Shown here: positions 4,313-39,394 of the stretch, one piece after another
Layout of the letters: the number at the start of each line of letters is the position of its first letter
Position numbering within the stretch: position 1 is the first letter of the stretch
NCBI GenBank assembly: GCA_003453595.1
Contig: DMOG01000026.1
Location: forward strand, 6,567 to 70,566
Direction: 5' to 3'
Source of the DNA: Candidatus Uhrbacteria bacterium
Lineage (GTDB): Bacteria; Patescibacteriota; Patescibacteriia; UBA9934
Length of the DNA stretch: 64,000 bases
Made by a program: the position numbers and the translations under genes
The notes under the pieces: generated by a model
Database searches by the model: none
Told to the model about the DNA's origin: nothing
Seen by the model: the letters and a program-made list of their open reading frames with translations, nothing else

Positions 4313-4906
4313 CTATCGGATCATGGCGTGGTTGTTCCAGAACTCCACCGAGGCGAGGTAGGCCTCGCGGTTGAGGGCGACGCCGCTGCCGCCCTCCTCC
4401 TTACCCAGTGCGTTGCGCATCATGGTGATGGGGGGCATGGGGTCCTCGGCGGGGTTGAGGCCGGCGTTGATGGAGACGATGCCCCACTCGGCGTCGGGTA
4501 CATCGCGCTCCATGTTCGGCGTCTGGTCGGCTTCCTCCTCCAGTGCCTCGCGGTTGTAGAGGATGATGTCGAGCCACTCCGCCTGCGGCGCCTTCAACCC
4601 CTCGAACCAGCGGGTCAGCACCGGCAGCTCACCCTCGCGCCGCGCCTCGTAGCCGGAGCGCAGCAGGTGTGCGTTGTCGGGGGTGATGGCCGCGATGGGG
4701 GCCGTGGTGGTTGTGGTGTTGCGGACGAAGAGGTGCTTGCAAAACGGCGCGTAGCCGTCCACCAGCATCTCGCCCGCCTCGAGCGCCGCATTGGCGATCT
4801 CGACGAGCTCCTCGGCGGTCATCCCAACGATGCGGGTGCCAGCGAAGTTCTTGTTGGCAAAGTGGCGGCCGAGGGCGAACTTGGTCATTCCGATGGTGTT
4901 GCGCAT
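4313..4906 (-). CDS. Hypothetical protein encoded in a high-GC island (about 62% GC); start assigned at MRNTIG with a GGAGG RBS
   Basis: A long ORF in a high-GC segment. A GGAGGCACC sequence sits directly upstream of ATG 4904-4906 on the minus strand. The overlapping plus-strand ORF 4154-4969 is judged a GC-induced shadow ORF. Confidence 0.55.
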   Translation of the reverse strand: MRNTIGMTKFALGRHFANKNFAGTRIVGMTAEELVEIANAALEAGEMLVDGYAPFCKHLFVRNTTTTTAPIAAITPDNAHLLRSGYEARREGELPVLTRWFEGLKAPQAEWLDIILYNREALEEEADQTPNMERDVPDAEWGIVSINAGLNPAEDPMPPITMMRNALGKEEGGSGVALNREAYLASVEFWNNHAMIR

Positions 4907-6555: not shown

Positions 6556-6596
6556 AACCACCCCCCACCCCTCCTTAGAAAAGGAGGGGAGTCGAG
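6556..6596. repeat. Copy of the dispersed palindromic repeat (AACCACCCCCCACCCCTCCTTAGAAAAGGAGGGGAGTCGAG) in the 5' leader of the DEAD-box helicase gene
   Basis: Matches the family consensus CCCCTCCTT-loop-AAGGAGGGG. Confidence 0.6.
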
Positions 6597-19194: not shown

Positions 19195-19365
19195 TCGGTC
19201 TCTCCCCCTTTTACAAGGGGGGAGTGGGCTGTGCCCTTCGTAGCCCAGAGGGCGAAAAAGGGAGGGGGTTAATATAGCTTCCGCCTTCCGGAATAACCAC
19301 CCCTAGCCCCTCCTTAAAAAGGAGGGGGAACCAAGTATTCCTAATCCCAATCTCCTCAATCCCCT
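19195..19365. repeat. Cluster of palindromic repeat elements (CTCTCCCCCTTTTACAAGGGGGGAG; GGGCTGTGCCCTTCGTAGCCCAGAGGGC; AGGGAGGGGGTTAATATAGCTTCC; AACCACCCCTAGCCCCTCCTTAAAAAGGAGGGGG) at the left edge of high-GC island B
   Basis: Several hairpin-forming units are shared with the clusters at 30690-30925 and 33230-33375. Confidence 0.65.
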
Positions 19366-24492: not shown

Positions 24493-26490
24493 TTAAAACT
24501 GTACTAAGAACTCCAAGTCCTGAACTAAATCTGTGTTCAAGTAATATGAATTATCTCCATACCCTTCTGAGCTCTCCGATGGCTGTGCAGCTCTTAATTT
24601 TTTACCAAAATCAAGGTCTAAAGTCAACGGGGCCTGTTGAGAACCTATTTGCTTAAAAACAGTCAAATCATATGAATTCTTAGCAATCGCCTGATCAACA
24701 CTATCTGGTAGTCGATAATGAAATGATAGAGTTTTGTTTTCTCCTGGTTCAATCACAATATAAGCCCCAAATCTTTGCATGTCAGACTCTTTAGCAGAAG
24801 ATGCATCAGCACCATTTGTAGAAATAAGTTGGCTTCCAAGTGGGGCTATAACGCTTGTATAACTTTGATATCTGGTCGTACGCCAATTAAAATCTCCGTT
24901 ATGATGATAAGTGATATCAACATAGGCCTCATAATGATCATCGACTTTTTCAATAGCATATTCGATTTCCTTTGACATGGCATGATCAGTTTTCAATGCA
25001 CCCATATTTGCGTCCACTACCATTAAATAATCATCAGAGTCAGAAATGTCCATAATCGACGCCCAGCCAGCGTCTTCAAAAACAACCTGAGTCTGAGCAT
25101 CAAAGCTATAAAGCGCCATCTGCTTTTGGGTAAACATTGATGAGAAAACATTTATAAGCGCCGGCAATTGGGCAATTTGTGTATTCATCAATCGCGCCAT
25201 TATCTCATCCATTAAATCATTAATGATTTCTTTTCGATCCTCCCAGGCAACTCCTGACTCAACAAATCCATATTCAACTTCATACTCCAAAGTCTCAGTG
25301 AAGTTTTCACTGGTAAATGTAGTACCATCAACCGTGATATCGCCAACTATATTCAAAAGATTTTCAATTACTGTTGGGGTCAAGCCAATCACGCCGTGTA
25401 TCTCTGGAACTGGCAGACCGGCAAAAGCATACTCCTGTCGAAGAAGTTGAACTGATGTTTTTGAAGATTCTGCAAAATCAGGCGCCCAATTTGCATCCCT
25501 AAAGTACCAGGTATCCAAGCCTAAATAATCTGAAATTGCTTGTGGTGGCACAACATTATATGCATCGCTTTCAACTAATTCATCGATTGAATATGTATTA
25601 TCAGTTGAAATATCCAATATTTCACCATCACGAATCTGAAGAAGTCCATAGACTCCCATAAAACCACCTCCCGGACGCATTTCGGTGTTGTTTAAAAACA
25701 ACAATAGCCACTGTCTGTCACTACCAACCCCTGCTAACTCATCGATTGACTGAGCAAACGGAGTAATAAGCTCAACCGCCGCATAAATACTTGGCAAAAT
25801 TTCTTGCAGTTGATCAACCACTGTTTGCATTGAACCAATTAATTGTTCATCCTTAAGCTGGTTTAATTCTTCCTGAGCAAGTGTTACCTGAATTTTCGCC
25901 TGTGCCAAATCTGGTGCAATGGATTGGAGTGTTTGCAACATCTCGACCCGTACCTGAGCTGGCAATGTGTTAAATGTATATGACTTTTCCAGGCCAGGAA
26001 TTTCATCAAGCGTTTCCTGTATTTTTTCAAGCGAACTATAAACATCAGATGCAATTAAAAGCGCATCATCAATAACATTAACCAAGGCAACGCCTGTATC
26101 TACTAACACAACCAAGGCATGAACTTGATCGCCAACCCACGGTAAAACAGTCAGTGGCTTAGCAATCCAAAGACATGTTTGAGCTGTATGAAGGTCCATC
26201 TGCGCTTGCCAAACATCAATTTGAGCCTCATCAAATTCAAATGCCAATGCATGTTCCTGGGCACTTTCCAGCGCAGACTTGGCGTCAAGAGCTGAGGCGA
26301 CAAATCGTCCAATAAATAAAAGCGCGATCAAAACTAAAACAATAATAATTCCCAACACAGTCGCCACTCCAACTTTTTTTCTGCGAGATGGTAGCCTGGG
26401 CGGTTCATAGGAAACCAAAGGTTCAATTTCGCTGACCTCAGGCCCAGACAAAGCATCTGGTGTTTCCAAAAAATTTAATCCTCGATTCAT
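24493..26490 (-). CDS. Membrane-anchored DUF4012-like cell-envelope protein
   Basis: Has a single N-terminal TM helix, a 'PGGGFMGVYGLLQIRDGEI' motif recalled from DUF4012 proteins, and lies in a glycosylation locus. The ORF frame continues to 26574 into a repeat. Confidence 0.45.
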   Translation of the reverse strand: MNRGLNFLETPDALSGPEVSEIEPLVSYEPPRLPSRRKKVGVATVLGIIIVLVLIALLFIGRFVASALDAKSALESAQEHALAFEFDEAQIDVWQAQMDLHTAQTCLWIAKPLTVLPWVGDQVHALVVLVDTGVALVNVIDDALLIASDVYSSLEKIQETLDEIPGLEKSYTFNTLPAQVRVEMLQTLQSIAPDLAQAKIQVTLAQEELNQLKDEQLIGSMQTVVDQLQEILPSIYAAVELITPFAQSIDELAGVGSDRQWLLLFLNNTEMRPGGGFMGVYGLLQIRDGEILDISTDNTYSIDELVESDAYNVVPPQAISDYLGLDTWYFRDANWAPDFAESSKTSVQLLRQEYAFAGLPVPEIHGVIGLTPTVIENLLNIVGDITVDGTTFTSENFTETLEYEVEYGFVESGVAWEDRKEIINDLMDEIMARLMNTQIAQLPALINVFSSMFTQKQMALYSFDAQTQVVFEDAGWASIMDISDSDDYLMVVDANMGALKTDHAMSKEIEYAIEKVDDHYEAYVDITYHHNGDFNWRTTRYQSYTSVIAPLGSQLISTNGADASSAKESDMQRFGAYIVIEPGENKTLSFHYRLPDSVDQAIAKNSYDLTVFKQIGSQQAPLTLDLDFGKKLRAAQPSESSEGYGDNSYYLNTDLVQDLEFLVQF

Positions 26491-26507
26491 GAAAACATTA
26501 TAGCAGT

Positions 26508-26592
26508 TTCGCGAAACTAAGTCAGTTAGACTTAGACACAGAGACTTAGACATTTTGTCTAAGTCTCGAAGCACTTTAGCTTGATTTTATTG
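26508..26592. repeat. Left flanking repeat of the IS200-like element (two hairpins: CTAAGTC-agtta-GACTTAG and GACTTAGACA-ttt-TGTCTAAGTC, plus CGAAGCACTTTAGCTTGATTTTATTG)
   Basis: A near-identical copy lies at 27370-27449 in direct orientation. Confidence 0.75.
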
Positions 26593-26638
26593 ATTTTTTT
26601 TTATTTTGTATAATCCTTTTCAGCTATATTTCAATAGA

Positions 26639-27250
26639 CTAGATCTTCAATCCAAAATCAATATTCATAGGACAACCATATTTTATCCAATCGATTAAAA
26701 ACTTGTCATACTCTTCACTACAGTCAAATTCATCATAGATTGATTGGCTATTACAGACATTATTACATTTACTAAATAATCTTGGATAACTAGACCATTG
26801 ATAATTCTGTAAATATTTAATGGCTTCTTGCACATTATCGACACCCTTCACCTTCCAATCTGGAAATAAGTATTTTAATGGATTCAAATGGATATATCGT
26901 GATATATGCAATAAATATCCATCATTATCAATTTCCTTAACCTTATAAGGTCCTTCGAATATACACCCAGTTCTTCGACTTATATCGTTATATCTGACAG
27001 TCGAGCTTATCCCAATTTTTTGCATAAACTTAGATATTCCTCCGTCAATTTTCTGCCTTAATAACAAATGAAAATGGTTATCCATCAAACAATAACAAAC
27101 AATATCGACTAATTGTTTACTTTTATTAAACCTCTTAAGGTTATACAAGAAAAATTTTCGATCATAATCACTTTTAAACAGTGGCTGCTTATCAACGCTT
27201 CTATTATATATATGGTAAAAACCATCATTAACTAAATTTTCGCGACGCAT
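26639..27250 (-). CDS. IS200/IS605-family or REP-associated tyrosine (Y1 HUH) transposase-like protein
   Basis: Has 'HIYNRSV...CYCLMDNHFHLLL', which is the HUH motif (HFHLL), a downstream catalytic Tyr region, and a size typical of about 200 aa. Confidence 0.7.
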   Translation of the reverse strand: MRRENLVNDGFYHIYNRSVDKQPLFKSDYDRKFFLYNLKRFNKSKQLVDIVCYCLMDNHFHLLLRQKIDGGISKFMQKIGISSTVRYNDISRRTGCIFEGPYKVKEIDNDGYLLHISRYIHLNPLKYLFPDWKVKGVDNVQEAIKYLQNYQWSSYPRLFSKCNNVCNSQSIYDEFDCSEEYDKFLIDWIKYGCPMNIDFGLKI

Positions 27251-27369
27251 AATTAATTTGTTAAGAATAAAATAACCCCAGCTGTTTTATCAGCTTGGGA
27301 GTGTGTTTGCTTATCTATTGCACCAAAAATACATTCTAAAGTCAATATAAGTTGTGCATATCCAATCAA

Positions 27370-27449
27370 GTGTCTTAGTCAATTTGACTTAGACATAGAG
27401 ACTTAGACAAAATGTCTAAGTCTCGAAGCACTTTAGCTTGATTTTATTG
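27370..27449. repeat. Right flanking repeat of the IS200-like element (GACTTAGACA-aaa-TGTCTAAGTC hairpin; the loop is inverted relative to the left copy)
   Basis: A direct sequence match to 26508-26592. Confidence 0.75.
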
Positions 27450-27454
27450 GGTTT

Positions 27455-28285
27455 CTATTTTCGCGGAGATTCTTTGCTGCGGTATTTATAAAAAAACTTT
27501 ATGGCACTATTTATCTGAATCCAAGTAAATTTATTGAACATTTGTTGCAAAAGCCCGCCGTCAGCGCTAGCTCGGCGGTGGTAGTGAATCATGTGTGCAT
27601 TTGGATAATACACAACTTTGTGTCCGTGTTCCCAAAATCGGCGACACAAATCATTATCTTCGTAATACATGAAAAATCGCTCATCAAAACTGCCGACTTC
27701 ATCCAAGGCAGTTTTGCGCGTAAACAAGGCCGCGCCAATTAGTGAATCAACCTCCATCTGTTGATCATGGCTTTGATCCATCATCAAATAATCCTCAATC
27801 GCTTGCTTACCAACTCCAAACTTTCCTAAAAATGTTCGACGATATGCTGGCACCATTAAAGTTGGAGACCGATAACATGAATACTGCAAACTTCCGTCTG
27901 GATTACGCAATTGCGGACCACACATTCCCACCTCTGGATTTGCGTCCATAAACTCCAGCATTGTTTCCAACGACTCTGGCTGGATCACAATATCTGGATT
28001 AAAAATCAGTACATAACGCCCACGCGCCACATCTATCCCCCTATTCATAGCTGAGCCAAATCCAACATTACGCTCCAGCGGAATATGACGAACCTGTGGA
28101 AACTCAGCGCGCGCCATTTCTCCAAATCCAGCCCCTGGATTGTTATCAACCACAATAATTTCAAAACCAAGCTTTGGTGCAGCTCGTCGAATACTATCAA
28201 GCGTTTGGCGAATAAGATACTTTTCAAATGTATGGACAATGATAATCGACAAGTCCAGTTGTTGGGCCTTATCTGACATAGGCAC
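27455..28285 (-). CDS. Glycosyltransferase family 2
   Basis: Has 'IIVVDNNPGAGF...' and 'FNPDIV', the GT2 DxD-like region. Confidence 0.75.
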   Translation of the reverse strand: MPMSDKAQQLDLSIIIVHTFEKYLIRQTLDSIRRAAPKLGFEIIVVDNNPGAGFGEMARAEFPQVRHIPLERNVGFGSAMNRGIDVARGRYVLIFNPDIVIQPESLETMLEFMDANPEVGMCGPQLRNPDGSLQYSCYRSPTLMVPAYRRTFLGKFGVGKQAIEDYLMMDQSHDQQMEVDSLIGAALFTRKTALDEVGSFDERFFMYYEDNDLCRRFWEHGHKVVYYPNAHMIHYHRRASADGGLLQQMFNKFTWIQINSAIKFFYKYRSKESPRK

Positions 28286-29329: not shown

Positions 29330-29700
29330 GATTGTCGAGGAGGCCAACCCCCCACTTCTCAGTTCGATCAAATTCGAAAAGATCTCTCCCCTTCTTCACT
29401 AAAGTTACGAAGGGCCCATCGAAGTTTGATACGAAGTTGGGCTAGGCGTCGAGATGGAGAGACTTATTCCCCACTTCGAACGAAGAGAGAAGTCTTCTCG
29501 ATGAAATCTATCGTCGCTCTGCTCCTCGGGATGGGAAATAGAAGTCGAGATAGGACAAGACTCATTCCCCACTTCGAACGAAGAGAGAAGTCTTCTCGAG
29601 AAGATCTCTCGTCGCTCTGCTCCTCGAGATGGGGAAAAAGAAGTCGAGAGATGGGAAATGCACTCCTCGACTCCTCGCGTAAACGCTCGGTCGCTCGGAA
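29330..29700. repeat. Tandem repeat array with a period of about 96-99 bp, with units beginning at 29448, 29544 and 29643 (partial) plus degenerate upstream copies; each unit contains small palindromes (TTCGAACGAA, GAGAAGTCTTCTC)
   Basis: Unit alignment was seen directly, e.g. GTCGAGAT(G/A)G...TTCCCCACTTCGAACGAAGAGAGAAGTCTTCTCGA...CGTCGCTCTGCTCCTCG(G/A)GATGGG. Confidence 0.75.
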
Positions 29701-29802
29701 TGACGGCATATGGAATACAAATATATAAAAAGCCGTCAAAAGCGAACACCCCCATGACCGAAGTCTTGGGGGTGACGGAAGGGGGTTGAGAGAGGCCGCC
29801 GT

Positions 29803-30504
29803 CTACATGAAGTAGTACCAGGCGTCGCAGCCCTCCTCGGGGGTGGTGGCGGAGGTGCCGGTGCTCCAGCCGAGCGACTGGACGCCGGACAGGCCGTCGG
29901 TGGTGGTGTCGATGGTCTCGTCCGAGAAGTAGAACTGACCGGCCAGCCCGCAACTGGTCCCGTCCAGGTTCGACGAGGCGTACGAGTACGCACCGTCGTC
30001 CACCCGCTCGACGTTGAGCTTCAGCGAGTAGAACTCGCTGTCGCAGTCGAACTCGCCCTCGACCCACGCCGCGTTGGTCGCGGTGCCGACGGCGTTGCCG
30101 TTGCCCCAGGAGGAGCAGACAGCGTTGTCACCGGCGTCGTAGGCGATGACCCAGAGGGACATCGCGTCATGCGACTGGACACCCCAGTACCCGAGGTACC
30201 AAGTGTCGGCGTCGGCATCGGCGTCGGCATCGGCGTCGGCATCGGCGTCGGCATCGGCGTCCGCGTCCGCATCCGCATCGGCGTCGGCGTCCGCGTCCGC
30301 ATCGGCGTCCGCGTCGGCATCCGCGTCGGTGTCGCTGTCGGCATCGGCGTCGGTGTCCGCGTCCTCTTCCCCGTCGCCGGGGTTGAGGTCACGATCGCCG
30401 TCGTCGGCGACGTAGCCGGTGTCGACGTCGTCGCGGTCGCGGGGCTGGGACAGGTCGGTGCAGCCGACGAGGGCTGCGATCATGGTGATCAGGAAATACC
30501 GCAT
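29803..30504 (-). CDS. Lipoprotein with a (Asp-Ala)n low-complexity repeat, in high-GC island C
   Basis: Has a lipobox ALVGC-TDLS, a long DADADA... run encoded by the GCATCGGCGTCG hexamer microsatellite (about 30200-30345), and a Trp/Gly-rich C-terminal domain. GC is about 65%. Confidence 0.6.
   Translation of the reverse strand: MRYFLITMIAALVGCTDLSQPRDRDDVDTGYVADDGDRDLNPGDGEEDADTDADADSDTDADADADADADADADADADADADADADADADADADADADADTWYLGYWGVQSHDAMSLWVIAYDAGDNAVCSSWGNGNAVGTATNAAWVEGEFDCDSEFYSLKLNVERVDDGAYSYASSNLDGTSCGLAGQFYFSDETIDTTTDGLSGVQSLGWSTGTSATTPEEGCDAWYYFM
30200..30345. repeat. Hexanucleotide microsatellite (GCGTCGGCATCG)n inside the lipoprotein gene, encoding (DA)n
   Basis: Read directly. 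The shadow ORFs on the plus strand (SASASA..., GIGVGIGV...) are artefacts of this repeat. Confidence 0.8.
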
Positions 30505-30689
30505 TTTCTTTCTCCGATTTTGGCCCTTTCGAGCCGGGGGGTGGAAGGCCTTTCGGCCGTTTTTTGAAGGTGTGACAGTCGGGATTGAACCAACATGTCA
30601 ACAGAGCAGGATATCACAAAATAGGGGTTTTGTCAAGGGGTTGGGTTGTAAAATGCACTAAAACCAGCCATTTTTGGCTGGTTTTTGAG

Positions 30690-30925
30690 GTTTTGATAGG
30701 CAACCACCCCACACCCCTCCTTGGGAAGGAGGGGAATCGAGACTCGGTCTCTCCCCCTTAGTAAGGGGGTCTTTTGCACATCATCTATTGACAAATCTGG
30801 CAAAATGGGCTAAGGTTCAGCGTTCATTATCAAAGAAGCGGAAGCCTCAACAACCACCCCTCCTCCTTCGCACAAGGCTACGGAGGACTATCGCAATTCC
30901 TCCTTGGGAAAGGAGGGGAGCCTGA
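30690..30925. repeat. Two clusters of the palindromic repeat family between the divergent island-C lipoprotein genes (GATAGGCAACCACCCCACACCCCTCCTTGGGAAGGAGGGGAATCGAGACTCGGTCTCTCCCCCTTAGTAAGGGGG; ...CAAGGCTACGGAGG...TTCCTCCTTGGGAAAGGAGGGGAGC)
   Basis: Matches the family consensus and sub-units also found at 19195-19365 and 33230-33375. Confidence 0.7.
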
Positions 30926-31092
30926 GCCAAAAAGGAAAAAACTCGGCTTTTACAATATCTGCACAAAATCGTGAAGATATTATACAAGCCGAGTTCCGAT
31001 TCCCGAAACCGGCCCGTGCCCGTCCCTCAATCCCCTTTGCGGGGCGGAGCGGGCATCACCCCCAAAGGCGGAGACCCCGCCAAGGAGGCGCC

Positions 31093-31620
31093 ATGCGCAA
31101 CCTGATGTGTCTGATCACCATCCTGCTGGCCTCGGCCTGCACGGATCTGTCCGGAAACCAGAACGGCGAGGAGACCTACGTCCCGTCCATGTCGTCCGAC
31201 GACATGGACAGCGATGGCCTGGTCGACGGCTACGACTCCGACGAGATCGTCGGCCCCATCGCCAGCTACCCGACGGAGCTCTGGGTGAACGCTGGCGCCC
31301 TGTCCTTCCCCTGGATGGGTGAGGAGATGTCCTTCCAGTGCCGCGACCACAACGGCCGGGTGCTGGACTTCGCCTGGCAGTACTGGTACAACGGCGAGGC
31401 CACCCCCGCCAACACCTGGTTCGTCGCCTACATCGACGACCGGGCCGGCGAAGGAGACTGGCTCTGCGCCTTCACCCGCAACGACCGGTCGGTGCTCGAC
31501 ATCACCGTGTCCAACGACCCCCTGGTCTGGACGCACGGCGGCGTCTGCATCTACCAGGCCAACAACGGCGTCTACCAGGCGCCGGGCAACAACTCCTGCG
31601 ACGACATCCGAGGCCTCTAG
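31093..31620 (+). CDS. Lipoprotein, hypothetical, in high-GC island C; start assigned at MRNLMC with a CAAGGAGG RBS
   Basis: Has a lipobox LLASAC-TDLS, which is the same C-TDLS start as the divergent (DA)n lipoprotein. It contains Trp and Cys pairs, and GC is about 64%. Confidence 0.6.
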   Translation: MRNLMCLITILLASACTDLSGNQNGEETYVPSMSSDDMDSDGLVDGYDSDEIVGPIASYPTELWVNAGALSFPWMGEEMSFQCRDHNGRVLDFAWQYWYNGEATPANTWFVAYIDDRAGEGDWLCAFTRNDRSVLDITVSNDPLVWTHGGVCIYQANNGVYQAPGNNSCDDIRGL

Positions 31621-31699
31621 CCTCGACCGTCGCCCAATCCTTGAACCCCCGACAGCTCAGCTGAGTATCGGGGGTTCTGTGCGTTTAGGTTATAGAACT

Positions 31700-31812
31700 T
31701 GATAGGCAACCACCCCCCCCACCCCTCCTTGGGAAGGAGGGGAGACCGAGGTGCGGGGATCGCGTGATAGGCAACCACCCCTAACCCCTCCTTGGGAAGG
31801 AGGGGTGGTTAG
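31700..31812. repeat. Two tandem copies of GATAGGCAACCACCCC-N-CCCCTCCTTGGGAAGGAGGGG; the second copy overlaps and encodes the last about 10 codons of rfbD
   Basis: Sequence identity to the family was seen. The reverse complement of the repeat translates to ...NHPSFPRRG*, matching the rfbD ORF C-terminus. Confidence 0.75.
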
Positions 31813-32656
31813 ATAAGAACTCTGCTAGTGCTTCGGTGCGGGGGCGGAGTTTTGGGAACTTTGTGTTTGCTAGTGGCGAGTAGTGTGGACATTTTGCCAG
31901 TCGGGGAAAATCACTTCTTGGGCATGGTCGATAGTTTTCTGTGATTCCCATGGCTTCAAAAACTTCTTTGGCAAATCCGTAAACACTGACAGGCTCACCT
32001 TCGTTAACTAGGTGATAGATGCCAGGACAATAGTCTTTTTCCATTAACTCCAGTACGGCGCGAGCTGCGTCCAAAGCGTAGGTTGGTAAACCATATTCAT
32101 CGTCAGCGATCTTTAAGTCTGGCAAATCACGGTTTAAACGAAGCATGATGTCGATAAAGCCTTCTTTGCCACTCTCCCCTGTAGCCTGATTACCAAACAG
32201 TTTAACAACTCGACAAATAAAGGTTTTATCACAAGCTTGCAAAGCCAATCTTTCCCCTTCAAGCTTTGTTTCACCGTATTTTGAAATTGGATTTGGAGTG
32301 TCATCCTCTTGATAATAATCCCCTTTTTCCCCATCAAAAACATAGTCAGTACTAAAATGCACAAACCTAGCGTGGACAATCTGAGCGGCCTTGGCAAGAT
32401 TCTCTGGTCCTTTGGCATTGATCTTCATGGCCAACTCAAAGATCTCTGGCTCTTCAACTTTATCGACAAGATTGTAAGCAGCGGCATTGATAATCACCTC
32501 TGGTTTCTTGTCTTGAACAAAGCTCAAAACTGATTCTATGTCTGTGATATCAAGATCTTTTCGAGTAGCTGAAATAACCTTATGACCAGCAGATTCAAAA
32601 ACCTCAACCAAGTATTGGCCAAGCATTCCTTGTGAACCTGTGATCATTGTTTTCAT
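31781..32656 (-). CDS. rfbD: dTDP-4-dehydrorhamnose reductase
   Basis: Has a Rossmann motif 'MITGSQGMLG', and its position in a dTDP-rhamnose operon and a size of about 290 aa fit RmlD. Confidence 0.75.
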   Translation of the reverse strand: MKTMITGSQGMLGQYLVEVFESAGHKVISATRKDLDITDIESVLSFVQDKKPEVIINAAAYNLVDKVEEPEIFELAMKINAKGPENLAKAAQIVHARFVHFSTDYVFDGEKGDYYQEDDTPNPISKYGETKLEGERLALQACDKTFICRVVKLFGNQATGESGKEGFIDIMLRLNRDLPDLKIADDEYGLPTYALDAARAVLELMEKDYCPGIYHLVNEGEPVSVYGFAKEVFEAMGITENYRPCPRSDFPRLAKCPHYSPLANTKFPKLRPRTEALAEFLSNHPSFPRRG

Positions 32657-33229: not shown

Positions 33230-33375
33230 GGGGAAATAGATTAAGAAAGGAGGGAAAATCGAGACTCGGTCTCTCCCCCTTAGTAAGGGGGAGTAGGAGG
33301 GGGTTAATATAGCTTCCACTTTATAAAATAACCTCCCCTAACCCCTCCTTAAAAAGGAGGGGAACCGGGTTTGAG
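33230..33375. repeat. Cluster of palindromic repeat units between rfbC and rfbB (…ATCGAGACTCGGTCTCTCCCCCTTAGTAAGGGGGAG…GGGGTTAATATAGCTTCC…CCCCTAACCCCTCCTTAAAAAGGAGGGG)
   Basis: Shares sub-units with the clusters at 19195-19365 and 30690-30790. Confidence 0.7.
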
Positions 33376-35414: not shown

Positions 35415-35470
35415 ATGGATCCGAGTTCACACTCCCCCTTCCCAAGGGGGAGGTAGAGGGGGTTGCCCAC
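35415..35470. repeat. Palindromic repeat copy (CACTCCCCCTTCCCAAGGGGGAGGTAGAGGGGGTTGCC)
   Basis: A variant of the family core. Confidence 0.55.
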
Positions 35471-35821: not shown

Positions 35822-35866
35822 ATAATAGGCAACCACCCCTACCCCCTCCTTGGGAAGGAGGGGTGC
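35822..35866. repeat. Palindromic repeat copy (TAGGCAACCACCCCTACCCCCTCCTTGGGAAGGAGGGGTGCGC) abutting the DUF559 start
   Basis: Matches the family consensus. Confidence 0.7.
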
Positions 35867-37669: not shown

Positions 37670-39394
37670 TTAGTTTTTAATGATTGCGTACAAAGACTCA
37701 TCCCCAACGGTTGCAATCTTACGGAATTGAATATCGTTTTCCGCAAAAACCACTGATTGCAAATGTTCAATATCTGTCTTGGGAAGCGTAATTCCGAAGT
37801 AAAACATTGATGTTTGATCAAGTATCTCAGGAATGGCCTGATAGACATTTTCATCACGCAATGGAGTGATCACAGATCTATCTGGGAATATATACTTGTC
37901 AGCCATGTCAACAATAATTATGCAGTCTGGCGGTGTCTGTTCTAAAACGATCTGCTTTTTTTCAGTGAAAGATTCAAGATTATCATGAGTTTGAATAAAT
38001 CCATCATTTCCCCAGATCACTAACCGAACTGAAAAAAGAAAAACTAAAAAGATAATCAACCAAGGGCCAAAGTCAGCAAAAGGAAAATCCCTTCTTTTTA
38101 ACCATGCTCCGATCTTATCAACGGCAATGCCGGCAAATAATGAACCAAGAACAAATAATGGCAGCCAATAACGCACATAGGAGTTCCCTAAAGTCAAAAT
38201 TGAAGCATCAGGGTTGTCAGTGAATTTCCAGCTTCCATAAACAAATGCCAGCCAAATGCTAAGACCAAAAGTGATAATAAGCAAAGGTCGCCATCCTTTA
38301 TCCTTGAACACAAAAATTATTCCAAGAATTGAAAGTATGCTCATCCATGGATATAGCAGAAATCCATACTGCCAAACATTGCGCAAAATATTCATCTCAT
38401 GAATACCAAACGGGAATAGTACATTTAAAGGCGCAGGCCAAGATTTATCAATATTTGAGTCTTGATAGGCAACCACCCCCGACTCCTCCTTGGGAAGGAG
38501 GGGGGCTTCAGTCTGACTCTGATCTGCGACTGTATATCCAGTCTCTAGCATTGAACCGTATAAAACCTTATTCAATGCCAAAAATGGCAATAGAATCAAG
38601 ACTGCTGAAATTAGAAAAACAAAAACATTCTTTAAAACAAGCTCTTTTCGTTGCCAAAATAAAAATCCCACAACTAAAACTCCGACCCAAACAGCTTCTG
38701 ATGCTCGAAAAGAAATCGCCAACCCAAGCATCAGCCCTGCCAAAAACTCATCTAATATAACAGTTTTCTGCCAATTTGCTTTTATTGGCTGACAAACAAT
38801 GAAATACAAAGCTAGTAACAAAAGTGCAACAAAACCAACATTGTGCATCATTGTTCTGCCTGTGTAATACCAAAAAGCTGGATGAATCATGAGCAACAAT
38901 GCGCCAAAATCCGACAATCTTTCATTCTCAGTTAATCGATATAAAATTTGTTTCCAAGCAAATATTGCCAGAACAGCCAACAATGGAGTGACTAGCGAAA
39001 TACTCCAAGATCCAAAGATAAACGCAAATAAACCAGATAATACAGATAGTCCAAGGAAACTGACTGGAACTATGTATTGGATGCTATCTGTAACCACCCC
39101 CGCCCTTCGCTCTGCAGAGCTTCGGAGCGGCACAGCTAACCACTCCTTAAAAAAGGAGGGGAAACGAGACACAACAATCATGCTCCTTGGATGGACTAAA
39201 TTGGTCCATGAAATACCTTGATATTGTGATTGAATTGCTAAAGTTTGATCTTGAGCAAACTGTAAAGCAAAAACAGCGTTTGCATTCTCATCAGGAGAAT
39301 TAAAAATCATTTCAGATTGAGAATATGCAAAAAATGTAACAGAGAAAAAAAAGAGCAATAATGCCAAACTTCTTAAAACTGTTATTCTGCGCAT
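37670..39394 (-). CDS. GT-C fold glycosyltransferase (ArnT/PMT-like polytopic membrane protein) carrying two in-frame copies of the dispersed repeat
   Basis: Has about 12 TM helices and an N-terminal 'SPDENANAVFA' (DE-type first-loop motif). Repeat copies at 38463-38510 and 39091-39173 are read through in frame (…QTEAPLLPKEESGVVAYQD… and …SSAERRAGVVTD…). Confidence 0.6.
   Translation of the reverse strand: MRRITVLRSLALLLFFFSVTFFAYSQSEMIFNSPDENANAVFALQFAQDQTLAIQSQYQGISWTNLVHPRSMIVVSRFPSFFKEWLAVPLRSSAERRAGVVTDSIQYIVPVSFLGLSVLSGLFAFIFGSWSISLVTPLLAVLAIFAWKQILYRLTENERLSDFGALLLMIHPAFWYYTGRTMMHNVGFVALLLLALYFIVCQPIKANWQKTVILDEFLAGLMLGLAISFRASEAVWVGVLVVGFLFWQRKELVLKNVFVFLISAVLILLPFLALNKVLYGSMLETGYTVADQSQTEAPLLPKEESGVVAYQDSNIDKSWPAPLNVLFPFGIHEMNILRNVWQYGFLLYPWMSILSILGIIFVFKDKGWRPLLIITFGLSIWLAFVYGSWKFTDNPDASILTLGNSYVRYWLPLFVLGSLFAGIAVDKIGAWLKRRDFPFADFGPWLIIFLVFLFSVRLVIWGNDGFIQTHDNLESFTEKKQIVLEQTPPDCIIIVDMADKYIFPDRSVITPLRDENVYQAIPEILDQTSMFYFGITLPKTDIEHLQSVVFAENDIQFRKIATVGDESLYAIIKN
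38463..38510. repeat. Palindromic repeat copy inside the GT-C coding sequence (TGATAGGCAACCACCCCCGACTCCTCCTTGGGAAGGAGGGGGGC)
   Basis: A consensus match. The reading frame is preserved across the insertion. Confidence 0.75.
39091..39173. repeat. Palindromic repeat copy inside the GT-C coding sequence (GTAACCACCCCCGCCCTTCGCTCTGCAGAGCTTCGGAGCGGCACAGCTAACCACTCCTTAAAAAAGGAGGGG)
   Basis: A consensus match. The reading frame is preserved across the insertion. Confidence 0.7.

Follow-up and report, generated by a model that had tools for sequence, protein, structure and literature searches.

A probable REPtron/TIRtron-like locus in Candidatus Uhrbacteria: a Y1 HUH transposase-family gene flanked on both sides by a dispersed perfect palindrome

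The genome of a Candidatus Uhrbacteria bacterium (NCBI GenBank assembly GCA_003453595.1) holds, on contig DMOG01000026.1, a gene for a Y1 HUH transposase-family protein that very probably forms a REPtron/TIRtron-like locus, in which a single-copy, vertically inherited class-2 Y1 HUH enzyme stands between two copies of its cognate palindrome, itself dispersed in the intergenic DNA of that genome. The gene lies in a stretch of 64,000 nucleotides (positions 6,567 to 70,566 of the contig), hereafter called the window, and coordinates given without a further label refer to this stretch. Repetitive extragenic palindromes (REPs), together with the REP-associated tyrosine transposases (RAYTs), are the most familiar example of a domesticated bacterial transposase accompanied by short repeats of its own. 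The candidate phyla radiation (CPR), to which the organism belongs, is noted for very small genomes. In this work, we describe the enzyme, its inheritance, the flanking and dispersed repeats and the corresponding loci of related genomes, and weigh the explanations that compete for them.

With the Pfam model Y1_Tnp (PF01797), whose gathering cut-off is 23 bits, the protein scores 39.6 bits over residues 11-121 (E 6.6e-10). No other Pfam domain was found in it at E <= 0.01, and no C-terminal helix-turn-helix (HTH) or Bac_DnaA_C domain was detectable. Its HUH motif is N58-H59-F60-H61, and the catalytic Tyr119 lies within RYIHLNP. In an alignment of 30 family sequences, H13, R17, K21, N58, H59, H61, G71, F75, N88, R93, G95, Y119 and N123 are invariant, and P124 is conserved in at least 90%. 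The family consensus motifs are PNHFHLL, LFQG, RYIHLNP and WSSY, most members are 203-247 aa long, and the window protein carries FE where the family has FQ. The enzyme of the window is intact, with catalytic residues that the whole family conserves.

The preliminary description of this DNA had hesitated between an IS200 and a RAYT label, and several lines of evidence favour the RAYT-like one. REP_Tyr_transpos (NF047646) is the only NCBIfam model matched by the window protein and by all 30 aligned members (best E 3e-13); the IS200-family NCBIfam models matched neither. When the family profile was searched against the PDB, the best match was 4ER8, the TnpA-REP of Escherichia coli (E 0.005), with ISDra2 TnpA at E 0.16, while a single-sequence phmmer search of the PDB gave 0 matches. 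For the AlphaFold2 model (pLDDT 92), the top Foldseek match is 4er8_A (TM 0.71 normalised to the target, root-mean-square deviation 3.1, 164 columns); IS608 and ISDra2 TnpA rank after it, and the top 15 PDB matches are all TnpA-REP, IS608 TnpA or ISDra2 TnpA, so that the model has the alpha/beta fold of the TnpA type. The same label is supported by the single syntenic locus described below and by the Y---NP arrangement of the tyrosine motif, which is the class-2 (TnpA-REP) signature, Y---Q being that of IS200 (Quentin et al., 2018; PMC6006769, Table 1).

The gene behaves as a resident of its locus. The 90% cluster of the protein occurs on 28 contigs, and all 24 contigs read show one shared neighbourhood; a tblastn search found no second copy in about 250 kb of same-population contigs. 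Among 5.8 billion proteins the nearest other relative is 52% identical, and it is encoded in another Uhrbacteria genome (L046) within the identical gene order GT2-GT2-Y1-DUF4012-MreB-GT4. The neighbours are 79, 71, 65, 94 and 60% identical between the two genomes, so the Y1 gene evolves fastest within a block that is inherited vertically. Plasmids and phages seldom carry weak homologs (13 of 72,556 plasmids; a single phage). Properties of this kind served Bertels et al. (2017; PMC5581495) to tell domesticated RAYTs from insertion sequences, and the comparison of contigs shows that the gene is fixed at one chromosomal, syntenic locus and vertically inherited. Its GC content is 0.30 in a genome of about 0.41 (0.40-0.43 in the neighbours). 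Y1 genes were also seen to be AT-richer than their neighbours at other loci despite synteny and age (L046 4001-4612, 0.32 vs 0.43-0.48; L048 4001-4573; L051 3896-4567; L053 10001-10705).

On both sides of the gene lie near-identical, hairpin-bearing direct repeats, as first described, which a repeat search returns as a single family of 86 nt at 87% identity (26517-26602 and 27374-27459). The core 26541-26592 equals 27398-27449 apart from a 3-nt loop, and a profile of related copies sets the extents of the two modules at 26504-26603 and 27365-27467; a profile search of the 64-kb window found 0 further modules. Another copy in the same genome, present on L013, L015 and L027, is 88% identical over 113 nt to the right copy and reaches 27481, which makes the right copy the longer one. 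The tail of the downstream module is shared to 26592 only and is followed by a T-run. Folding as single-stranded DNA (ssDNA) predicts two hairpins per copy on either strand, with energies of -17.5 to -20.6 kcal/mol. The z-scores lie between -6.3 and -7.2, and not one of 200 shuffled sequences folds as stably. In the main hairpin, GAGACTTAGACA-TTT/AAA-TGTCTAAGTCTC, the 12-bp stem is perfect, and because the loop is flipped between copies, the two 27-mers are exact reverse complements. The 9-nt arm GACTTAGAC and its complement are confined, within the window, to the two modules and stand in a strict 14-nt register (Table 1). An Rfam scan of 26300-27700 matched 0 families, and a PHROGs search gave no match. 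The main hairpin was also considered as an intrinsic terminator; this was ruled out, a T-run after the hairpin being absent on both strands.

Duplications in metagenome-assembled genomes (MAGs) carry a general risk of being assembly artefacts, for example mis-joined repeats, and nothing beyond that general risk speaks for an artefact here. The segment 26401-27560 is base-identical, both loop states included, in four independent assemblies from different pipelines and samples (NCBI GCA_003489995.1, two from ENA and one from JGI), which establishes the locus as real. A shorter fifth contig from JGI (L029) holds the gene with the upstream module, and the syntenic homolog shows the same layout. 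The doubt raised in the preliminary description is thereby met, and we regard the probability of an artefact as negligible.

The hairpin is found well beyond the gene. In JGI metagenome contigs, the exact 23-mer GACTTAGACANNNTGTCTAAGTC occurs in 37 stretches. Once duplicates are merged, about 12 different intergenic sites remain outside the window, and a contig of unknown origin (L044) adds two. The dispersed hairpin has the pattern GACTTAGACA-NNN-TGTCTAAGTC, occupies at least 12 sites beyond the Y1 locus, and is met at three or four sites on some single contigs. Every dispersed site is bordered by ordinary genes, among them nusA, uvrB, transketolase, ssb/rpsF and dprA, and these genes may be arranged in tandem, convergently or divergently. 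At four of them, neighbouring proteins exactly match Candidatus Uhrbacteria GW2011_GWD2_41_121 or UU40_ locus tags, and the Y1 gene of the window is UU40_C0003G0035 of that same GW2011_GWD2_41_121/UU40_ MAG; at three more, the neighbours are exact proteins of NCBI Uhrbacteria MAGs. By these protein matches, at least seven dispersed sites are assigned to the window's own Uhrbacteria population. Many copies had been proposed beforehand as a sign of REPs, and the count falls on that side.

Most copies are built alike: direct GACTTAGAC(A) arms, two to five in number and spaced by 14 nt, are combined with the perfect hairpin and with a tail, TTGGAGAGAAATAATCAATGTTTACAGGGTTTTTAAAA, some 40 nt long. 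A variant tail occurs in the two copies of the window and at the L013/L015/L027 site, while the sites on L009 and L014 have the bare hairpin alone in common. Dispersed copies are mainly singlets or direct arrays. When about 250 kb of contigs from the same population were searched with a profile for degenerate copies, hardly any appeared apart from the carriers of the exact hairpin; the number of dispersed copies is a lower bound, drawn from the same-population contigs and metagenome stretches scanned. A scan of a genome collection, from which the source species is evidently absent, returned four matches only, all unrelated (Alteromonadaceae, Deinococcus, Bacteroidaceae) and all terminator-like or conserved local palindromes; by our own estimate, about 0.5 matches of the 23-mer are expected by chance in this collection, which is much larger than the metagenome set. 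Three Alteromonadaceae MAGs (L005, L006 and L022) show the same 23-nt palindrome in a locally conserved context, which is taken as chance-convergent and not as the same element.

The site on L013, L015 and L027 was tried as an orthologous empty site and rejected, since the 113-nt repeat is the only common ground and the flanking genes differ; it represents a third copy, a paralogue of the other two. Among the contigs compared, an empty site did not turn up. On another contig of the same genome (L012), GACTTAG elements at 4845, 6000 and 6779 bracket, in direct orientation, two open reading frames (ORFs) without a Pfam match. One of these ORFs is GC-rich, and the region adjoins a recR-like remnant, read by eye, and a copy of a second hairpin family described below. 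Possibly the GACTTAG repeats on this contig signal a region that varies.

We compared the corresponding loci of six homologs in other CPR genomes (L046, L048, L049, L051, L052 and L053; Table 1). Flanking repeats are present at all six, each with a sequence of its own, and hairpins at no fewer than five; when the window's own locus is included, five of the seven loci have perfect hairpins with a stem of at least 8 bp. L046, at the orthologous locus, retains the four-arm layout in a 14-nt register. In two genomes, the cognate repeat has come to lie in frame within the Y1 gene itself (L053 10176-10205, NSEVGLPNI; L052 4806-4826, IEVRLHSF), and these insertions sit in a variable surface region that the shorter window protein lacks. 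The 'EVGLP' insertion is seen in several more members of the family alignment. Covariation of enzyme and repeat, together with the occurrence of the repeat at new sites, points to a functional partnership and to a repeat that is or was mobile, and we take it as strong indirect evidence that protein and repeat are partners. A second Y1_Tnp-domain gene of 329 aa was noticed in L052 (3423-4412, minus strand), directly upstream of the family member P0101 and oriented divergently to it, so that some CPR genomes carry two different Y1 genes side by side.

These comparisons also bear on the idea that the GACTTAG elements serve the host in regulation or structure, for instance as operators, as promoter modules or as hairpins that stabilise RNA, and by chance flank a domesticated Y1 gene with some other ssDNA role. 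The strict register of the 9-nt arms is like that of arrayed binding sites, every copy is intergenic, a good -35/-10 match overlapping the downstream module stands just ahead of the DUF4012 start in the window as well as in L046, and proteins resembling subclass 2.1 have been reported without REPs. Nevertheless, the repeat sequence changes along with the protein at six of six homolog loci, two genomes carry it as an in-frame insertion in the Y1 gene, and no Rfam family matches it. The tandem, convergent and divergent contexts of the copies fit poorly with a single regulatory role, and promoter-like matches are no commoner than in shuffled sequence. We therefore consider host sites with an unrelated enzyme to be unlikely.

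The inverted 3-nt loop noted in the preliminary description, TTT in one main hairpin and AAA in the other, is the same in the four assemblies. As the stem is perfectly palindromic, the difference means that the 27-nt hairpin has been inverted between flanks that kept their orientation. When dispersed copies are aligned by their flanks, about nine show the loop TTT and three show AAA, and two adjacent copies on L044 have the loops GAA and TTC. Across pairs of upstream and downstream flanks, it is flipped in four of six and unflipped in two. Every loop difference is an exact reverse complement, which argues for inversion events and not point mutations, and the flip in the window is accompanied by 0 substitutions in the surrounding 49 nt. 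No loop polymorphism within one site was found among the assemblies compared. The flips look like frequent small inversions and not like a new transposition geometry. Template switching and cruciform processing act at perfect palindromes, and either could have produced the flips; alternatively, an enzyme may have excised the hairpin and reinserted it on the other strand. Both origins give an identical product, and the present data fit either.

A different excision or insertion geometry of the gene-containing unit, proposed at first from the direct-repeat arrangement, found no support in this comparison. The relation of the flanks is mixed: the 27-nt hairpin cores are 100% inverted with respect to each other, which is the usual relation of RAYT flanks, and some 60 nt of surrounding sequence, made up of the tail and the extra arms, stand in direct orientation. 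In addition, both loop states occur among dispersed copies of the same flank orientation, and the flank pairs are divided between flipped and unflipped.

The direct component of the flanks, on the other hand, is what an autonomous insertion sequence (IS) of the IS200/IS605 type would show. In that case, direct subterminal hairpins would be the ends of a unit of about 0.95 kb moving as ssDNA, and the solo hairpins would be derivatives resembling miniature inverted-repeat transposable elements (MITEs) or palindrome-associated transposable elements (PATEs). The ends of IS200/IS605 elements are indeed subterminal hairpins in direct orientation on one strand (PMC6006769, Table 1), the fold is shared with IS608 and ISDra2 TnpA, and the low GC content of the Y1 gene is compatible with a foreign origin. 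However, the gene occupies one locus in every assembly read, and its 52% homolog sits at the orthologous locus elsewhere with different hairpins. The protein has Y---NP and not the Y---Q of class 1.1, carries a C-terminal extension of about 80 aa and matches none of the IS200-family NCBIfam models; tnpB is absent, and the main hairpins are mutually inverted and not direct. An autonomous IS is accordingly very unlikely.

Among known systems, the E. coli REPtron (TnpA-REP, 4ER8, with flanking REP/BIME sequences; subclass 2.2 of Quentin et al., 2018, and Group 2 of Bertels et al., 2017) resembles the window locus in its single-copy Y1 HUH gene with a Y---NP motif and in a cognate palindrome found on both sides of the gene and dispersed intergenically. 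It also provides the best PDB match in sequence and fold, and the flanking hairpin cores are mutually inverted in both. On the other hand, the window protein is about 14% identical to 4er8_A over the Foldseek structural alignment and scores under the NCBIfam equivalog cut-off, it has FE/FQ where the E. coli type conserves WE/WQ, and its C-terminal extension differs. The window hairpins do not have the GT[AG]G guide tetranucleotide. The REPs of E. coli are GC-rich, imperfect and present at hundreds of sites, whereas the stems here are perfect, AT-rich, 12 bp long and closed by 3-nt loops, were found at 12 or more sites outside the window, and come with extra arms in a 14-nt register and a direct tail of 25-60 nt on both sides.

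By motifs only, the nearest group is subclass 2.1, whose signature is NH[YF]H, FQ, Y[IV]HLNP and SS in proteins of about 238 aa (PMC6006769). This subclass corresponds to Group 1 of Bertels et al. (PMC5581495). For the most part it also coincides with the TIRYTs, associated with terminal inverted repeats (TIRs), that Di Nocera et al. described (2013; PMC3733652). The present family shares the four motifs at a length of about 225-235 aa, and for some TIRYTs, self-complementary and moderately repeated TIRs were described (PMC3733652), so that moderately abundant flanking repeats are a further likeness to some TIRtrons. The flanking 16-mers of Group 1 are likewise moderately repeated, with about 12 per replicon (PMC5581495). 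Differences lie in the C-terminal HTH of TIRYTs (Bac_DnaA_C, HTH_23, HTH_28), of which nothing is detectable by Pfam in the window protein, and in the GGGGWSAS motif of TIRtrons, which is absent from the window flanks. Quentin et al. reported no REP-like structures for subclass 2.1, whereas seven of seven loci here have flanking repeats and at least six of the seven have hairpins; their automatic REP search required GT[AG]G and GC-rich stems (PMC6006769). The surveys cited were based on complete genomes, and the CPR is not mentioned in them.

Two further comparisons are instructive. In-frame REPs inside their own gene were described by Quentin et al. only for subclass 2.4 TnpA-REP of Cyanobacteria and Bacteroidetes (PMC6006769), and the cognate repeats inside the Y1 genes of L053 and L052 are alike in this respect; the window's own gene is free of an insertion, and its protein motifs differ from those of subclass 2.4. 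With the IS200/IS605 elements (IS608, ISDra2, IS200), the locus shares the HUH/Y1 fold, a presumed ssDNA-hairpin chemistry and hairpins near both ends of the gene. These elements have Y---Q and a core of about 150 aa, in contrast to Y---NP and 203 aa including the extension here, where the copy is single, syntenic and ancient, is accompanied by no tnpB and has many solo hairpin copies. Read from sequence, the locus has the broad features of class 2 (Y---NP, single copy, vertical inheritance, dispersed flanking repeats and repeats specific to their enzyme) and departs from the canonical RAYT of the E. coli/Pseudomonas type (subclasses 2.2 and 2.5) in the equivalog cut-off, the GT[AG]G guide, the GC content of the stems and the cleanly inverted flanks (REPIN/BIME). 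The core biology is thus the expected one, and what is new is the phylum, the type of repeat and the link to a supposedly REP-less subclass. In a full-text search of the literature for RAYT terms together with Patescibacteria or CPR, no paper describing a system of this kind in the phylum came up.

Several points weigh against a REPtron/TIRtron-like locus and should be set beside the evidence above. Its support consists of sequence comparison and predicted structure, and cleavage and movement are assigned by analogy only. The one NCBIfam match, REP_Tyr_transpos, reaches 44.4 bits and stays below the equivalog cut-off of 80. The hairpins are without the canonical 5' GT[AG]G guide, the 5' side of the stem reading ...CAGA or ...TCGA, and they have AT-rich stems. 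Taken as composites, the flanks are in direct and not in inverted orientation, and motif-wise the protein resembles the very subclass (2.1) in which Quentin et al. (2018; PMC6006769) found no REPs. The window itself holds the two flanking copies only, and the copy number is modest beside that of classical REPs. Finally, the statement of a single gene covers the contigs read and the same-population contigs searched.

Mechanistically, an enzyme of this kind may bind the hairpin in ssDNA, for example at a replication fork, by analogy with E. coli TnpA-REP and IS608 TnpA. Cleavage would then occur at the foot of the hairpin through a 5'-phosphotyrosine on Tyr119, with the metal held by His59 and His61, as in those enzymes. 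Rejoining of the strands would allow hairpin elements to spread or to be maintained while the gene of the enzyme itself stays in place, again by analogy.

A wider proposal, in which our confidence falls somewhat short of even, is that a clade of class-2 Y1 enzymes, motif-wise nearest to subclass 2.1, extends across the CPR/Patescibacteria. Each enzyme would have its own co-evolving, perfectly palindromic, multi-arm repeat in a 14-nt register, which spreads through intergenic DNA, flips often and enters the gene of its own enzyme, and the pair would be kept vertically in genomes of about 1 Mb. Vertical maintenance in such streamlined genomes would argue for a role beneficial to the host.

Table 1. 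Coordinates of features in the window and layout of the flanking repeats at six homolog loci (loops at homolog loci are given upstream vs downstream).
Feature	Coordinates	Strand	Description
Y1 HUH tyrosine endonuclease/transposase gene, RAYT/TnpA-REP-like (class 2)	26639..27250	-	203 aa; from Pfam, motifs and fold
Upstream REP-like module (relative to the gene)	27365..27481	.	Four 9-nt arms (27372, 27386, 27400, 27414), two hairpins, tail TCGAAGCACTTTAGCTTGATTTTATTGGGTTTCTATTTTCGCGGAG
Main hairpin of upstream module	27398..27424	.	GAGACTTAGACA-AAA-TGTCTAAGTCTC on + strand; loop TTT on gene-sense strand
Downstream REP-like module	26504..26603	.	Architecture as upstream; degenerate arm at ~26515, arms at 26529, 26543, 26557
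Main hairpin of downstream module	26541..26567	.	GAGACTTAGACA-TTT-TGTCTAAGTCTC on + strand; loop AAA on gene-sense strand; 100% reverse-complementary to 27398-27424
DUF4012 gene, corrected start	24493..26490	-	665 aa; conserved start; neighbour, not part of the element
Promoter-like site	26497..26525	-	CTGACT-17-TATAAT, TG before second hexamer; putative
Terminator-like hairpin, then T-rich run	27280..27295	-	Between upstream module and Y1 start codon; putative
Second hairpin family, exact pattern	6569-6588, 19308-19326, 30715-30733, 31723-31741, 31786-31804, 33343-33361, 35844-35862	+	
Second hairpin family, looser copies	35432-35467, 38465-38503		
Homolog locus L046			Four GGCTTAGCC/GGCTAAGCC arms on each side, 14-nt register; loops ATTTG vs CAAAT
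Homolog locus L048			AGTTGAACT hairpins, 14-nt register; loops TTT vs TTT
Homolog locus L049			CTGAAGGATATC-G/C-GATATCCTTCAG; third copy 740 nt away; loops G vs C
Homolog locus L051			27-nt direct repeat; short hairpin read by eye (stem shorter than the 8 bp required by the scan); a third copy at a distance of 3 kb; loops CTC vs CTC
Homolog locus L052			GAAGTCCGACTTC; five copies (<=1 mismatch) in 15 kb; 0 perfect hairpins in flanks by scan
Homolog locus L053			ATATTYGGAAGTC-C/G-GACTTCCRAATAT; compensatory stem change between the two copies; loops C vs G

As regards the neighbouring genes, the start of the DUF4012 gene is conserved with that of the syntenic homolog (MNRGLNFL vs MSKGLNFL) and corresponds to the ATG at 26490, as called in L004, which places the repeat upstream of the coding sequence. 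An overlap arises only with a mechanical GTG ORF (26574) or with the extended start of some assemblies (686 aa), and the overlap with the 5' end of this gene in the preliminary description came from such an over-extended start call. On the other side, the last 27 nt of the upstream module (27455-27481) cover the stop and last 8 codons of a GT2 gene (27455-28285, minus strand). The same overlap of a repeat module with the GT2 stop and last codons is seen in L046 (3827-3852), so in both genomes repeat-derived sequence supplies the GT2 C-terminus.

In the promoter-like site before the DUF4012 gene, the -35 hexamer falls within the downstream module, and 6 nt separate the -10 hexamer from the ATG. 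The TATAAT-6-ATG spacing recurs in L046 (window 26488-26502; L046 4694-4708), and this exact distance in both genomes suggests that the DUF4012 transcript may be leaderless. Promoter-like sites in the region are not above their frequency in shuffled sequence, for which reason we keep the promoter as a side inference only.

A second dispersed hairpin family, which is GC-rich, was noticed in the window. It follows the pattern (GATAGGCA)ACCACCCC...CCCCTCCTT-N3-5-AAGGAGGGG, with 7 exact-pattern copies where 0 are expected, and its stem consists of a Shine-Dalgarno-like AAGGAGG and its complement. The family is also present on other contigs of the same genome (L012 and L013), and no copy adjoins the Y1 gene. 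Copies of it bracket a GC-rich island at 29500-32000 (GC 0.57-0.69 in a genome of 0.41), which contains two lipoprotein-like ORFs, one at 29803-30504 (minus strand) with a long (Asp-Ala)n repeat and one at 30904-31620 (plus strand). Gene calls in the island differ between assemblies, which suggests that it is a strain-variable insertion.

For annotation, these findings mean that the Y1 gene should not be called an active IS, that the repeat is not an IS end, and that the extended DUF4012 start is an artefact. For the biology of the group, the locus very probably brings a partnership of the REP/RAYT type to light in a groundwater Candidatus Uhrbacteria genome of the CPR, and the motif signature of its protein clade is that of a subclass earlier reported without associated repeats. 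To our knowledge, subclass 2.1 is the largest RAYT-like group and is without a known function. If the pattern were clade-wide, it would offer many natural pairs of enzyme and hairpin, with simple perfect hairpins, for testing the rules of recognition, and it would provide a data point for the vertical persistence of such systems under strong genome streamlining.

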